Source of the DNA: a virus | Virus record (IMG/VR): IMGVR_UViG_3300031454_000255 | Coordinates: 1,779-65,778 of that record | Reading direction: 5' to 3' (one strand) | DNA: 64,000 bases | Shown: positions 12,865 through 32,219 of the stretch, piece by piece | Layout: every line of letters starts with the position of its first letter | Numbering within the stretch: the stretch's first letter is position 1 | Position numbers and translations under genes: made by a program | The notes under the pieces: model-generated | What the model was told of the DNA's origin: nothing | Databases searched by the model: none | What the model saw: only the letters and a program-made list of their open reading frames with translations

Positions 12865-13995
12865 CTAACTCGGTGTCGCGCCCAAATCGTCGGCGACCTG
12901 CATTAAAATTTGCAGCACGTCTTCGGTTTGCGCCGCATTAACATCTAAAGTTTTCAAAGTAAGACCGCCCGCGATTGAGTAATCGGCAAAGGTGCGATTC
13001 ACAATTTTGTCTTCGGTGACGGTGCGGGCAAAATTTATAATTTTCACTAAGTCGTTGTAATCAATGTTGAAATTTACCGTTCTGGTTACTGCGAAAGCAC
13101 CGGAATATCCGGTCAAAGAAGTTCCCGCCTGCAAATCGGTGATTAAAGTTCCGGTATAAGCCCTCAAATCGCTCAATTGACCGTCCGTTTCATTCAGAGC
13201 TTTGAGGCTAAACGGATTCGTGATTGTGTAGCCTGACAAAGCCGCGCCGCCGCCCGGGGTGTTTGCCGGATTAACGGCAATGGTGAACGATTTATCGATT
13301 GCCGCGCTCCCACCGGCGTCCGTCACTCTGATAACGGTTGAGTAACCCGAGCCTTGCGGATTGGAAATCGTCAGCAGTCCGGCGGGCGTCGGCGGCGCGT
13401 TCAGATTGCCCGCCACGCCCGCAAACGTATAAGGCGGAGTGCCGCCCGCCGCTTGAAACTGATAAGTGTACGACACGCCCGTCGTCGCTGCGGGAAGCGC
13501 AGACGGCGAAGTAAAAGAGAGCGCAGACGGCGATGGTGTCGGCGTTGGTGTCGGCGCGGGCATAACCCCGACCGCGCCCAAATACGGAACCTCGAAATCA
13601 TTCGCTCTGCTTCCTGCATACGGATCGCAGATGATCGTAATCGTGAGCGTCGGGAGCCACGATTTATGTCCTTCGTGCGGGAAATCAAAGAATTCATAAC
13701 GACAGCCCTCGATAACCAGCCCTCGTTTTTGAGTAAACGGAAACGTCAGGGACTTTTGCCGTTCATTGTAATGATTGACGAAAATCGCTAAATTATCGAC
13801 ATCCGCCTGCCGCCTTAAATCAAACTGAAACACTCTGTGCCATCTCTGCGGCGCGACATCGTTCAGACGGTTGAAGGCTTTGCCCTGGTCTTCGTAAGTA
13901 TGCGTGGCGGTCACGGCTTGCCAGTCAGCCGGTTCTTTCCGGTAGTGAAAAGTCGGCTGATTAATTGGCGGGTAAAATGGATTCGTTGCTGGCAT
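12865..13995 (-). CDS. Distal tail-like protein with a Pro/Thr linker and a putative Ig (He_PIG-like) domain
   Basis: Directly follows the tape-measure gene; PTPTPTPSPS linker, then LPAATTGVSYTYQFQAAGGTPPYTF...VIRVTDAGG. Confidence 0.6.
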   Translation of the reverse strand: MPATNPFYPPINQPTFHYRKEPADWQAVTATHTYEDQGKAFNRLNDVAPQRWHRVFQFDLRRQADVDNLAIFVNHYNERQKSLTFPFTQKRGLVIEGCRYEFFDFPHEGHKSWLPTLTITIICDPYAGSRANDFEVPYLGAVGVMPAPTPTPTPSPSALSFTSPSALPAATTGVSYTYQFQAAGGTPPYTFAGVAGNLNAPPTPAGLLTISNPQGSGYSTVIRVTDAGGSAAIDKSFTIAVNPANTPGGGAALSGYTITNPFSLKALNETDGQLSDLRAYTGTLITDLQAGTSLTGYSGAFAVTRTVNFNIDYNDLVKIINFARTVTEDKIVNRTFADYSIAGGLTLKTLDVNAAQTEDVLQILMQVADDLGATPS

Positions 13996-16900
13996 TAACC
14001 GTCCACCGTCCTTAAAATTAATCCGTGTAAATCGCCCCTGTTCGAGACGTTATTGCTGACGACGCCCAAAATATGCGAGTCATTCGATTTGGCGATGATA
14101 TTTACCGTATGAACGACTTGCTGCGGTGCGTTGCGTGTTGTTTCCCGTCGTTTGTCTTCGGATTCGCCGCTCGAAAAAGCCGTCCCGCCATTGCTCGAAC
14201 CGCTTCTGCCTTGTGTCGTTTTTATTTCACCATTCGAGCCGCTTGATATTTGGGACTCTTTCTTAAACGAATTCGCTGAATTTTGGTTTGAGCTTCCCGC
14301 TAATGCTCGCCCCGCTAATGCAGTCCCAACAGCAAGAGCCGCCCAAAGCCCCGCTGAGATAAAAGCGTGACCCGCCGCCGCAAAATTACCTTCTGCCAGA
14401 TTCAAAAATCCAAGTGCTGTTGCGTAAAGAGCTTTGACCGTTGCCACGCCTGCGATGTGCGCGAGTTCGGCGGCAAGAGCCTGTTTAAGAGCCTTTCCGA
14501 CGCTTCCGCCGTATAACGCCCATTGCTGAATAGCGTTGCCGACGGCGTTAGTCATACCTTCAAAAGCGCCGACAGCAATATCGCCAAACGCCGATAATGT
14601 ATCGCCAAAACCGCGTATACCGTCTTGTTTTTCGAGCAGCTTTGTTAGTCCGGTAGTAAACGCGCCGAAAAACCCGCTTTCCGCGCTCGTATCAGTAATT
14701 TCTTTGCCAACTCCGTCACGGATTCTTTTTAATTGGTCTTGGAAATCCTGTTCGGAAATCTTGGTTTTATTTTTATAAAGTTCATCAATCGCCGCTTTTT
14801 GTTCGGCTTCGTTTATCGCGCCTTTGACTCTTTCAGTCGCGGCATTGTGTTCAAACTCAATCGCTTCGGCATCGCTTGTGTGCTTTTCGGCGGCGATTTT
14901 TGTTTCAAAATCATAAAGTTCACGCAAAGCAGCAATCCGCGCCTTACCGAAACTGGAATTAACTCTTGTCTCTAAATCTTCTCGTTTTGAATCGTTTTGA
15001 ACTTTTTTCAGTTCTGCGTCTGCTTTTTTGACGGCAACAGTCAATTGACTAAGATTCGCGCTGGCTTTTTTTGATGCCTCGTCGCTTGCTTCAGTTTCTT
15101 TGTTGATAGCTTGGGTAACTAAAGTTGAAGTGGCAGTGCGCTGCGTCGAAAGGGAAGTTTCGAGAACGGCAACTCTATTTTTTGTCTCAAGCTGCTTAGC
15201 CGGTGATAAATCCTTATTGAGCGCAAGCCGTTTGGTTAATTCGAGTTCGTCACGAATTGCATCCTCTTTTATTTTTTGTTCGTCACGAATTCGAGAGGCT
15301 TCGCGCTGATTACTCAAAGTTGCGAAATTCGCGGCTTCGGCTAATCGCTGCTTATTACTCGCCTCATATCTTTCAAGAGTGAATTTATATTCATCTTCGG
15401 CAATCGCTACGCGCTTATTTGCCGCCGTTTGAGTTTCCTTGACGGATTCCTTTTGCGCGTCGGCAATTAGTTTTTCGTTTGCCTTTATGCGCTTCGAGCT
15501 TTCATCATTGATAGCGTCAATTGACGTTCGTTCATCCGTTCGGATTGCTTTTCTTGCCGTCGGATTTTTTTCACGACCGGCTTTTACGTCAAACTCATTC
15601 GCGGTAAGTTGAATTAATTTTGCGACAAATTGTCTCTCGTTTTCAAGGTAATTTTCACGGAATTTTTCAGCCGTGACAGCGCGATTTTCAAAATTATCTC
15701 TTGTGAGTCCGTCTAATGTTTCGTAGCCTTTTTTGAACTGTTCAATAGTTGCGGTATTTAACTTTTCAACCGCGTCAAGTTGTTCTTTTTCTGCTTTTTC
15801 GCGTTCCTTTTTTGCTTTTTCGGATTCTTCCCGCTGGTTGTCAAGCGGAGGCAAAAACGGCGAATTCGTGTTCACGCTTCCGTTCGGATTAGGCGTATCA
15901 GTTAAATTCGGAAGCGTATTGTCTGCTTTCGGCGCGGGCGCTCCGCCCGCCAAACCTTGTTTTATTCCCTCAAATATCGCCGCTCCGATTGCCATACCCG
16001 CCCGAATCAATTCCGGCACTAGCTTCAAGAGCGTGAAAGGGAGTTTAACGAATTGTTCAACAGCAAAAGCGATTCCTAAAGTGACTGCTTTGCCGAATGC
16101 GACTAATGCTTCCGTGCCGTACTGAAATAAAGCCGTGCCTAAAAGTTTCAGAATCTTGGAACTAGAATCAAGAATGGTTGTAAAAATCCGCACGGAAACT
16201 TCAACCGCTTTTGTAATTATGCCTTTGAAGGTTTCCCACGCGCCTGACCAGTTGCCGTTAATTAACTGCATTGCTAGTTTGACAACGCCTTGGATTAAAT
16301 CAACACCAGCCGATATGATTCCTTTAATACCGTTCCAAGTGGTAGAAACAATATCGGTAATTTGTCCGCCGTAATCTTTCCAGAAACCGCGGACGACTTC
16401 CAAAAAACCCTTAACAATGTTTTTAACCGCCTCCGATACGGTAGAAACGGTTTCTTGAATTAACGGATAATTGTCTTTCCAAAAAGCTACGATGTCAGCA
16501 ACGACGGATTGCGTTAAATTACTAATGACGCTCATCGCCGATTCAATTACAGATGAAACGGCATCGAAAATCTCTTTTGTAATATCACGGATGCCGCCGA
16601 AATTTGTTTCCCACGCTTCGTAAACGGCGAATGATGCCGCTGTCAGTAATCCGATAACACCAACAATACCCGCCACTACCGGCAGAATAGTCGATAAGCC
16701 GCCCAACGCCGTTATTGCGCCGCCGATAGCGGTTATACCTGTAATTACCGAACCGATTACAACTAGCGCGGGCGCGAGCGCGGCAAGAAAACCGCCGACG
16801 GCAACGATAATCGTTTTCAAAGTTGGTGAAAGCGAACTAAAAGCATTGGAAAGCGTTTCAATATACGGCGATATTTTCTCTATCGCCGGAACGACGGCAT

Positions 16901-31552: not shown

Positions 31553-31832
31553 TTACCAAACTTCACTTTTTTCTTCGTTTTCCTGGCTACCTTCATCGTC
31601 GGATTTGCCGCCAAAAATTGCGCCGATTTCTTCGGCGATAAACCGCGCCAATCTTCTATCGCGTGCCGTATCTTCGATTTGTAGACGCTCTGTTGCCGCC
31701 AAATCAAAAGCGACGGCGGCAAGGCTGTTTTCGCCGTAAAGTTTATCGAGACCCGCTAACCTGCTGGCGCGCTCGTTTAAGTTTCGACTTGCTAACGCCA
31801 GCCACAAAAGATTCGTATCGTTCACCACGAAA
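31553..31832 (-). CDS. Tail assembly chaperone T-frame (GT extension) 3
   Basis: +1 frame entered at TTT CGT: FVVNDTNLLWLALASRNLN...FDLAATERLQIEDTAR. Confidence 0.7.
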
Positions 31833-32219
31833 TTTTTCCGCGTCCGCAGCACCCCCCGTGACAATCCAATTTTGCAAAATTTGAAAGTCTGCCTGTGGTA
31901 TGTCTTCGTGCGCGATTTCGTCGTCTGATTCTGGGTTTGCCGATACACGCGGCTCGATTGCAATGTATTCAATGGCTTTTTTGGTGAAGGCTAAAGTTTC
32001 GTCAAAGTCTTCTTCTGACATTTGACCGAGTTCAACAGGTTTTTCTTCAATAATTGTTTTCTTGATTTTTTCGGCTAGAAAAGTCGGCAGTTTTCCGGCA
32101 AGCAAGTATTGTTCAACCGGAAATTGTCTAACTTTCCAAATGCAATTCGGCGTTGCCATCGGTAAATCAAAAACTAAATCATTAGCTTGTGTTTGTTTTT
32201 TGTAATCGGATGCTTTCAT
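31743..32219 (-). CDS. Tail assembly chaperone G 3
   Basis: Paralog of the other two G genes (IW.VR, EPRVSANPESDDEI, LQNWIVTGG). Confidence 0.75.
   Translation of the reverse strand: MKASDYKKQTQANDLVFDLPMATPNCIWKVRQFPVEQYLLAGKLPTFLAEKIKKTIIEEKPVELGQMSEEDFDETLAFTKKAIEYIAIEPRVSANPESDDEIAHEDIPQADFQILQNWIVTGGAADAEKFRGERYESFVAGVSKSKLKRARQQVSGSR

Follow-up and report, generated by a model that had tools for sequence, protein, structure and literature searches.

Stacked chaperone and tape-measure modules beside nuclease cassettes in the tail region of a siphovirus-like provirus

Why should the tail genes of one siphovirus-like genome include several chaperone and tape-measure sets that face a single tail tube and a single distal tail protein? 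The question arose from an initial annotation of a 64,000-nt stretch of the IMG/VR record IMGVR_UViG_3300031454_000255 (positions 1,779 to 65,778; hereafter the window), which had described three chaperone sets, two full tape-measure proteins (TMPs) and a truncated one. All the open reading frames (ORFs) it listed are in place on the minus strand, and homology and profile matches bore out the arrangement: the window contains three homologous chaperone (G/T) pairs, two intact tape-measure genes and a 172-aa tape-measure stump, against one tube gene and one distal tail gene. For the tube, the distal tail protein and the downstream tail proteins, no further gene was found in the window, either whole or as a stump. 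The region is best explained as the tail-shaft part of one temperate siphovirus-like provirus, the host of which is probably an Acidobacteriota bacterium from rock (the source is a rock metagenome). The tail features are as follows.

12865–13995, minus strand: distal tail gene, 376 aa, the only one, named by position and by homology to the post-TMP gene of relatives
13995–17720, minus strand: TMP1, 1241-aa intact tape measure, adjoining the distal tail gene on its upstream side (the canonical place)
17726–18398, minus strand: G1/T1 pair (G1 17955–18398, T1 frame 17726–18019), +1 shift site TTT-T at 17967–17969
18421–18493, minus strand: leader copy 1, just upstream of G1
22188–22706, minus strand: TMP0 stump, N-terminal 172 aa of an earlier tape measure
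24586–25300, minus strand: G2/T2 pair, shift site TTT-C at 24839–24841
25304–25903, minus strand: tail tube gene, 199 aa, the only one, sole tube-HMM match in the window, same position in relatives
25935–27312, minus strand: p99, p167 and the complete tail-completion gene p183 (26761–27312), synteny kept in relatives
27309–27378, minus strand: leader copy 2, just upstream of p183
27460–27678, minus strand: p72, small gene after TMP2, phrog_2891
27685–31542, minus strand: TMP2, intact tape measure with an SLT domain, 1285 aa, out of order, upstream of the tail-completion gene
31553–32219, minus strand: G3/T3 pair, shift site TTT-C at 31830–31832
32243–32311, minus strand: leader copy 3, just upstream of G3
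35727–35867, minus strand: 46-aa tail-completion stump of the p183 type, directly after the head-tail gene p123, absent from the initial annotation

G1, G2 and G3 align with one another and with the single G of relatives, and all three pairs have an open T frame, +1 relative to G, with a TTT-Y site at an invariant Phe. None of the nine aligned chaperone members matched a Pfam or PHROG TAC family, so that the name G/GT chaperone rests on synteny and the two-frame architecture. Lambda-type G/GT tail assembly chaperones with a programmed frameshift were reportedly described by Xu, Hendrix and Duda in 2004. The pairs found here resemble them in that two frames overlap in the interval from the tube to the TMP gene and the shift site is conserved, but the shift is +1 (or −2) at TTT-Y instead of −1, no sequence family is matched and there are three pairs per genome. 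The tube protein falls with Phage_TTP_17 clusters in the ESM Atlas (score 0.96, TM 0.86), and p183 matches the PHROG tail completion/Neck1 family (E 1e-10) and, weakly, Pfam Phage_tail_S.

For TMP1, hits to 14 PHROG tape-measure families were obtained, the best at E 3e-21. Homologs in Acidobacteria MAGs carry a TMP annotation (PF20155), and the closest homolog (P0145) is the only TMP of the related locus L054. The profile search gave no TMP-family match for TMP2 itself, which carries a Pfam SLT domain (aa 597–702, E 2.5e-17) and a C-terminal domain homologous to TMP1 and to the canonically placed TMPs of relatives; its closest homolog (P0025) is the only TMP of locus L053. The C-terminal likeness of the two proteins that had been pointed out from the sequence was confirmed, with 29.5% identity over the last 430 aa. 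Over the last 75 aa they are 48% identical, compared with 22–34% to relatives, and this rare end was seen in one of 170 database homologs, P0025. TMP1 and the closest homologs of both types (in L053 and L054) lie between a chaperone pair and the distal tail gene; TMP2 has no such position here, being followed by p72 and the tail-completion gene.

The TMP0 stump has a weak PHROG TMP match (E 9e-4) and the TMP N-terminal motif of the clade, which is also present in TMP1's own complete N-terminus. No homolog of the stump was found among 1.84 billion representatives. It lies downstream of G2/T2 and a moron, the same arrangement as the TMP in locus L006, and G2/T2 is considered orphaned because its tape measure is this stump. 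A leader element precedes G1, G3 and p183, made up in copy 1 of a GGGTCT box, a small hairpin and a 20-bp hairpin (ACACCCGC) with a T-run; none of the relative loci has it, making it genome-specific.

Between and beside the sets lies a series of nuclease cassettes and morons, listed here with an additional nuclease gene.

6257–7018: HNH gene
18589–18972, minus strand: SP1, secreted-protein moron, DUF4878-like fold
19011–22025, mixed: cassette 1, xre1 (minus) diverging from three plus-strand nuclease genes
19011–19205, minus strand: xre1, Xre-type switch
19572–20087, plus strand: Endonuclease_7 gene (Pfam)
20084–20524, plus strand: HNH gene (Pfam)
20490–22025, plus strand: HNH gene (Pfam)
22003–22182, minus strand: small junction ORF, 59 aa, starting right after the stop of the TMP0 stump and converging on the HNH gene end; resembles p65
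22808–24336, mixed: moron block of SPX, a RelE/HigB-like toxin with an HTH partner, and p79
22808–23383, minus strand: SPX, secreted protein resembling an L019 protein
23426–24134, plus strand: RelE/HigB-like toxin and HTH partner
24097–24336, plus strand: p79, 75% identical to an L053 protein
32384–32806, minus strand: SP2, secreted-protein moron, OB-like fold; a homolog precedes the TMP in L006
32849–35543, mixed: cassette 2, xre2 (minus) diverging from c2_66, three further genes and HNH_3 (plus)
32849–33070, minus strand: xre2, Xre-type switch
33191–33391, plus strand: c2_66, Zn-ribbon, 58–71% identical to cassette genes of L006, L019 and L053
34560–35543, plus strand: HNH_3
35533–35730, minus strand: p65, small junction ORF, its start overlapping the stop of the 46-aa stump and its end converging on HNH_3

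The window holds at least nine nuclease genes, and nuclease genes of homing families flank the G-T-TMP modules. At each extra set the order is the same: a late-gene 5′ stump, a small junction ORF, one or more antisense HNH genes, a divergent Xre switch (with putative divergent sigma-70-like sites in cassette 1), a secreted-protein gene, the conserved leader and G-T-TMP. SP1 and SP2 are 84% identical in their start and 5′ DNA. A complete, diverged copy of the broken function is found downstream of each junction. The 46-aa stump shares 46% identity with aa 14–48 of p183 (E 2e-7) and 55% with the L053 counterpart of p183, and the homologs of p123 and p183 adjoin each other in relatives. The endolysin repeats the pattern: a 95-aa lysozyme stump and a complete lysozyme, 44% identical to each other, have a SegE-like GIY-YIG gene between them. 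A stump, a nuclease and a full copy were seen three times independently (tail-completion gene, TMP and endolysin), there is a nuclease cassette at every break, and the break-and-replace reading of the window held when tested. A phage satellite carrying tail genes was also considered and rejected, as the cassettes sit inside the late operon of a single prophage and consist only of regulators, nucleases, toxin-antitoxin genes and small secreted proteins, with no integrase, att sites or replication genes of a satellite's own.

Among ~45 related loci, a single TMP C-domain and no more than one complete G per locus is the rule, the exceptions being the window and a locus from another Acidobacteria MAG (L067, also seen as L060), which has two of each and where two diverged TMPs abut convergently amid other prophage fragments. 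In L053, which has one complete set and a G2-type chaperone stump (44% identical), the order is tube, G2-type stump, cassette, G3-type/T3/TMP2-type and distal tail gene; the window's G3 and T3 are 67% and 50% identical to the L053 pair, and a cassette accompanies the G3/T3/TMP2 type there. On its gene order, L053 shows what would be the additive process one step earlier than the window. The TMP1 type occurs in L054 as a single, clean set. The idea that one set might be a selfish passenger stands in part: both extra sets lie directly behind nuclease/Xre/secreted-protein cassettes, but for each G-T-TMP type there is a relative that has it as its one set, in the canonical place (TMP2 type in L053, TMP1 type in L054). 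The types are therefore alleles of an essential module that are exchanged, and the modules are not themselves parasites. Homologous HNH and c2_66 Zn-ribbon cassette genes fill the tube-to-TMP interval in L006, L019, L031 and L053.

The account we lean towards, with its balance slightly on the probable side, is an additive, nuclease-linked module replacement in which cassettes would have put new tail modules beside old ones, the association being correlative. The chaperone-TMP module would have been overwritten at least two times by cassette-tied recombination, with the old module only partly removed each time. We infer that during co-infection, or when a lysogen was superinfected, a homing-type nuclease made a double-strand break or one arose close to it; the repair template would have been a related phage that shared homology on the downstream side alone. 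The donor tract would have started at the donor's nuclease cassette, upstream of its own G/T, and hence the chaperones would have been duplicated. It counts against this account that a donor of G3-T3-TMP2 would need a TMP upstream of the tail-completion gene, so that one-step repair is insufficient for that junction and at least two events have to be assumed, the leader copies perhaps being the crossover points for the out-of-order module. In the resulting genome, G1/T1/TMP1, beside the distal tail gene, would be the working set that builds the tail, G2/T2 would be an orphan, and G3/T3/TMP2 would be an intact spare that is probably expressed.

Parts of this scheme have counterparts elsewhere. 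In the intronless homing of T4 (SegF, SegG and MobE), a free-standing nuclease gene adjoins a cleavage-resistant allele of an essential gene; once the sensitive allele is cut, the nuclease gene is copied along with flanking donor markers (marker co-conversion). The window likewise has free-standing nuclease genes beside alleles of essential genes; however, events of the T4 type convert genes conservatively between genomes that are nearly identical and leave no stumps, whereas the donors here are only 30–50% identical (protein) and the left junctions look illegitimate. In CdiA-CT and Rhs loci, variable modules recombine through a conserved gene part, and displaced older fragments stay beside the active gene. 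The leftover fragments of earlier alleles are analogous, but in those loci 3′ ends are displaced downstream, while here 5′ stumps lie upstream, the genes are virion genes and nuclease cassettes occupy the joints.

The process proposed is close to the HEG-island concept, in which homing-type nucleases flank essential late modules, including tail operons with TAC and TMP, and mark recombination boundaries between otherwise diverged phages, with turnover of the nuclease content per site (Barth, Dunham and Seed 2023, NAR Genom Bioinform, PMC10448857). Here, too, HNH genes flank G-T-TMP, and homologous HNH genes occupy the same interval of four relatives. In the published cases, the incoming cargo replaces the resident allele (PMC10448857), whereas the window still holds the 5′ stump of the old allele, a chaperone pair left orphaned and an entire second module. 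Conservation of the flanks falls short of the >90% DNA identity described for ICP1-like islands, the cassette genes sharing 30–70% protein identity with those of relatives, and the cassettes add an Xre switch, toxin-antitoxin genes and secreted-protein morons.

Several other explanations could account for the multiple sets. An assembly artefact, named in the initial annotation as the way in which they might be undone, was examined by comparing three assemblies from two studies. The three-set structure is 100% identical in the ENA 172-kb MEGAHIT contig, in the Logan contig and in the second study's contigs, with even depth, and a single Logan contig of 16,390 nt covers 17468–33857 (G1/T1 through SP2) at depth 15, with neighbours at 16. 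The structure is therefore not an artefact, and copies that are only 30–48% identical (protein) are too diverged to mis-join; a chimera of co-occurring related phages is hardly credible, even though the related phage L053 co-occurs in the same study and contigs break at short repeats common to phages. It is also very improbable that the 172-aa ORF is exon 1 of a TMP interrupted by an intron or endonuclease insert and spliced or assembled with the downstream part. Nuclease-bearing introns within TMP genes are documented in ICP1 and other phages (PMC10448857), but no Rfam group I or group II intron was found in the window, TMP1 has its complete N-terminus with the same motif, and SP1, G1 and T1 intervene between the stump and TMP1. 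A decaying composite, with two or three related prophage tails joined by illegitimate recombination or by adjacent integration and deletions, incidental nucleases and a defective prophage, would agree with the two convergent TMPs of L067, with the CheckV completeness of 73% and with an element of ~66 kb against 38–45 kb for the relatives' contigs. We consider it improbable, as every other late gene is present in exactly one intact copy, no head, lysis or tail-tip remnants lie between the sets, no long ORF is broken by a frameshift or stop, and the breaks fall at nuclease cassettes, including that of the endolysin.

Another reading is that both sets work, TMP1 and TMP2 each being loaded by its own G/GT and competing for the same tube and tip, so that one lysogen would make two virion kinds, alike in tail length but with different injection ends, one with the muralytic SLT domain and one without. 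The two TMPs are similar in size (1241 and 1285 aa), both ORFs are intact, every one of the three pairs has kept its shift site and open T frame, the leader is shared, and the 75-aa end recurs in P0025 alone among 170 database homologs; all of this would fit. However, the C-terminus could equally be a recombination footprint, namely the right-hand homology arm of incoming modules; one set suffices in nearly all relatives; TMP2 is out of order and behind a terminator-like hairpin; and the tube of L053, partner of the nearest T3-type chaperone, is only 32% identical to that of the window. We regard this reading as unlikely, though of some weight. A shade more doubtful is its extension to a bet-hedge against cell-wall state or TMP-targeting exclusion proteins, with the cassettes as the gain route and with the match between the tip-binding C-terminal 75 aa of the two proteins being preserved inside one genome. 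Use of both sets, if real, would be a new means by which a phage varies its injection machinery.

To our knowledge, nuclease-gene exchange of essential phage modules has so far been deduced largely from end products. In this prophage, the scars of the intermediate steps (stumps, junction ORFs and orphan chaperones) are preserved, and at three separate essential genes, making the order and geometry of the events directly readable; they point to one-sided, additive repair when the donor is diverged. Two intact chaperone-TMP sets facing one tube and one tip are also rare in nature, and the prophage is hence a ready test of chaperone-TMP, GT-tube and TMP-tip specificity.

The runs holding window sequence are DNA runs only, and all copies recovered were 100% identical, leaving no population variation from which the events could be dated or selection assessed. 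For TMP2, the intact ORF of 3.9 kb, the leader and the matched C-terminus are at least as consistent with a gene in use as with a passive spare. Within cassette 2, the segment 33802–34033 showed a depth spike of 3–6 times the local depth, with variants, indicating that further genomes in the sample carry it too.

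The window comprises most of a 66.4-kb IMG/VR provirus record, itself lying inside a 172-kb contig, and its minus-strand late genes span from ~45 kb down to 2 kb. The genes discussed here follow in the direction of transcription, G/T pairs being putative tail assembly chaperones and TMPs tape-measure proteins.

Gene order from the head-tail gene to the distal tail gene.
35868-36239, minus strand, p123, head-tail gene
35727-35867, minus strand, 46-aa ORF, tail-completion stump
35533-35730, minus strand, p65, small ORF
34560-35543, antisense block, HNH_3 nuclease gene
between HNH_3 and c2_66, antisense block, three genes without assigned function
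33191-33391, antisense block, c2_66, 66-aa Zn-ribbon gene
32849-33070, minus strand, xre2
32384-32806, minus strand, SP2, secreted protein
31553-32219, minus strand, G3/T3
27685-31542, minus strand, TMP2, followed by p72
26761-27312, minus strand, p183, tail-completion gene
between p183 and the tube gene, minus strand, p167, then p99
25304-25903, minus strand, tail tube gene, 199 aa
24586-25300, minus strand, G2/T2
between G2/T2 and the TMP stump, RelE/HTH pair (antisense), p79 and SPX, secreted protein
22188-22706, minus strand, 172-aa ORF, putative TMP stump
22003-22182, minus strand, 59-aa ORF
19572-22025, antisense block, HNH, HNH and Endonuclease_7 genes
between Endonuclease_7 and SP1, minus strand, xre1
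18589-18972, minus strand, SP1, secreted protein
17726-18398, minus strand, G1/T1
13995-17720, minus strand, TMP1
12865-13995, minus strand, distal tail gene

The initial annotation had described two full tape measures, one truncated tape measure and three chaperone sets next to a single tail tube and a single distal tail gene, and each of these claims was borne out. TMP1 (1241 aa) matches 14 PHROG tape-measure families, and TMP2 (1285 aa), which carries an SLT domain, is 29.5% identical to it over the C-terminal 430 aa. G1, G2 and G3 are homologous to one another and to the single G that relatives encode between tube and TMP; as no Pfam or PHROG family matches these G proteins, the name chaperone rests on synteny and frame architecture. 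Each of the three T frames is shifted by +1 against its G and stays open through a TTT-Y site (17967-17969, 24839-24841 and 31830-31832), located where the G alignment has its sole invariant Phe. The usual chaperone frameshift is -1; that of this clade is predicted to be +1 (or -2) at TTT-Y, the offset of +1 being seen in the coordinates of the window and of the related locus L008 and the site sequence being read in the window only.

The sole match of the tube HMM in the window was the 199-aa protein. Its ESM Atlas record, with Phage_TTP_17 clusters at a feature score of 0.96 and a structural TM of 0.86, identifies it as a tail tube; this record was used instead of an AlphaFold2 model built from a 24-sequence alignment, which was poor (pLDDT 44). 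The tube alignment profile matched none of the PDB sequences. The window contains no second copy or fragment of the distal tail gene, nor of the tube gene, p99, p167 or the downstream tail genes. The 172-aa ORF begins with the N-terminal motif of all tape measures that occupy the canonical place in this clade and ends 160 nt short of a convergent HNH gene. A phmmer search of 1.84 billion representatives returned no real homolog of it. Its sequence is best read as a TMP stump.

A second stump is the 46-aa ORF, the N-terminus of a tail-completion gene, because it resembles p183 (46% identity to aa 14-48, E 2e-7; 55% to the homolog in locus L053) and homologs of p123 and p183 are adjacent in relatives. 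It is followed by a small ORF and then by the convergent HNH_3 gene, the same layout as at the TMP stump. The endolysin region (49266-51142) contains a lysozyme stump (positions 2-77 of 125 of the Phage_lysozyme Pfam profile), then a SegE-like GIY-YIG/NUMOD nuclease gene and then a complete lysozyme gene whose product is 44% identical to the stump. A break-and-replace pattern holds at three sites: the TMP, the tail-completion gene and the endolysin.

To place this arrangement among relatives, several collections were scanned. With the tube protein alone, the viral contigs yielded no locus, and with TMP2 alone, they yielded one; a narrower alignment of the TMP C-terminus gave 11 and 3 loci in the genome and metagenome collections, respectively. 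Tube homologs led to loci of plain order (L007, L008, L010, L011 and L021), namely tail-completion gene, two small genes, tube, G, T, TMP and distal tail gene. About 45 distinct related loci were then scanned with HMMs for G and the TMP C-domain, a search for other two-set genomes that the initial annotation had suggested; every locus showed a single TMP and no more than one complete G, except the window and L067/L060. The named relatives are prophages in Chloracidobacterium, Pyrinomonadaceae and other Acidobacteria MAGs; hence, the host of the window is probably an acidobacterium as well.

L067 (7191-14866, Acidobacteria bacterium 13_1_20CM_3_53_8) and L060 each carry a pair of diverged G-TMP sets that converge, 107 nt apart, with the two TMPs abutting among other prophage pieces. 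One of these TMPs is broken up into two ORFs (329 and 605 aa), and an S24 repressor gene and a second Phage_tail_S gene lie nearby. These sets are probably adjacent or nested prophage remnants.

The key comparison is L053, found in a different run within the rock study of the window. It begins with p123, p183, p167, the tube gene and a 99-aa stump of a G2-type chaperone, continues with an antisense block (HNH, HicA/BrnTA toxin-antitoxin and HTH genes), c2_66 and further genes, and ends with a G3-type G (67% identical), a T3-type T (50%), a TMP that is 58% identical to TMP2 across the N-terminal half and the distal tail gene. L053 thus has no complete set other than this one of the G3-T3-TMP2 type, which occupies the normal position; before it lie a cassette and a stump, the stump being of the type that this set displaced. 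The TMP1 type, in turn, is a clean single set in L054. Since each type is thus the sole set elsewhere, both tape measures of the window derive from lineages in which each is the working one. In L053 2936-10000, the history of the window is seen in a one-step version.

The cassettes, with antisense nuclease genes and a divergent xre gene, recur at the same site in relatives. In L006, L019, L031 and L053, the interval from tube or G/T to TMP holds antisense homologs of the 511-aa and 146-aa HNH genes, those of c2_66 are 58-71% identical in L006, L019 and L053, and homologs of SP2 and SPX adjoin the TMP in L006 and L019. In L019 (5388-9526), the G/T pair is inverted, on the strand opposite to tube and TMP and beside three HNH genes, which is an inversion within the same hotspot.

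Cassettes 1 and 2 have little coding similarity but share short DNA islands with a spacing of ~13.8 kb. One lies at the SP gene starts (18925-19007 and 32759-32841), where 76 nt are 84% identical and a 33-nt palindrome covers the start codon; another, of 30 nt and 90% identity, is in the antisense operon's 5′ leader. The leader island, which combines a GGGTCT box and a small hairpin with a terminator-like 20-bp ACACCCGC hairpin that carries a T-run, is found immediately upstream of G1 (18421-18493), p183 (27309-27378) and G3 (32243-32311), with a decayed copy near 22727, upstream of the TMP stump; the motif was absent from all relative loci searched. For the leader, either a late promoter combined with an antitermination unit or a linker for recombination is conceivable, and the islands as a whole may serve regulation, recombination or both. 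They are positioned as would be expected if unequal crossovers at leader copies had set G3-T3-TMP2 before p183. SP1 and SP2 have their first 16 residues and the DNA upstream in common, and the SP starts look like a fixed expression/secretion socket with exchangeable cargo. A role of SP1 and SP2 as exclusion factors was rejected, as their predicted folds are unrelated (DUF4878-like and OB-like, respectively) and nothing ties the two proteins to exclusion.

The last 75 aa of TMP1 and TMP2 are 48% identical, whereas each is only 22-34% identical to relatives. Over the 100 aa just before this end, TMP2 reaches 54-62% identity with one group of relatives, and TMP1 is ~33% identical to everything. 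Among 170 database homologs of the two proteins, this kind of end was found only in P0025, the sole TMP of L053, and the TTQG motif in only one. The shared end is not a recent copy, because third-codon positions are only partly shared. It may be a homology arm for incoming modules recombining into the backbone lineage; alternatively, a common tail-tip partner may have kept it as it is. P0025 itself is chimeric, with TMP2-like N-terminal two thirds, a TMP1-like C-terminal 250 aa and no SLT Pfam match.

Overall, we lean towards a nuclease-linked replacement, additive in nature, of an essential module. The resident gene would have suffered a break that was repaired from a diverged donor with homology downstream only, and the donor tract, from its nuclease cassette onwards, would have been joined on behind the 5′ stump of the resident. 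The chaperones would have been duplicated in the process because the donor cassette sat upstream of the donor's own G/T, and the G3-T3-TMP2 junction would require at least two events. G1/T1/TMP1, in the canonical place, is likely the working set, G2/T2 is without its tape measure, and G3/T3/TMP2, intact and with the same leader, is a candidate second set. True dual use of both tape measures, which a common tail-tip partner would favour, appears unlikely, and a defective composite with incidental nucleases seems slightly less likely still. A split gene, with the 172-aa ORF as its first part, was rejected as highly improbable, since no intron was detected and TMP1 has its own N-terminus.

An assembly chimera, the kind of artefact that would, according to the initial annotation, refute its proposal, is hardly credible. 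The sequence of the region recurs at 100% identity in a 172-kb ENA MEGAHIT contig, in a Logan contig and, from a second study, in contigs of one run, giving the same structure in three assemblies. The Logan contig (16,390 nt) extends from T1 past SP2 at an even depth of 15, with 16 in its neighbours, and none of the contigs examined skipped a set. Mis-joined repeats are implausible, as the set copies are too diverged (21-48% identical at the protein level). All recovered copies being 100% identical, there was no variation for dN/dS, and no RNA run contained this sequence. In the Logan contigs of both holder runs, a c2_164 segment of cassette 2 (33802-34033) has 3-6 times the local depth and many variants, and a 43-nt piece of TMP1 (17455-17497) has ~8 times the local depth; with contigs breaking there, both are taken to be common to other community genomes.

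This reading comes near the HEG-island concept published by Barth et al. (PMC10448857), and nuclease genes at TMPs and at exchange boundaries are already known. What is unusual here is that stumps are kept at three essential genes and that a second intact chaperone-TMP set is present, a combination of which the literature searched held no description. Likewise, no phage with two complete chaperone-TMP sets was found described, which is not proof that none exists.

At least nine homing-type nuclease genes (HNH, HNH_3, Endonuclease_7, GIY-YIG and T5orf172) were found in the provirus (6257-7018, 19572-22025, 34560-35543, 49897-50820, 55936-56376, 59584-60138 and 62170-62601), uncommonly many for a temperate siphovirus-like element. 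Short helical ORFs of one family, with the pattern L-x-D/N-x-R-R ... E-I-x-R-x-L, were also noticed at the stop of each stump, converging on the nuclease gene (35533-35730, 22003-22182, ~6950-7124 and ~39350-39522), and in L053 (3700-3840) a similar peptide forms the tail of the G stump.
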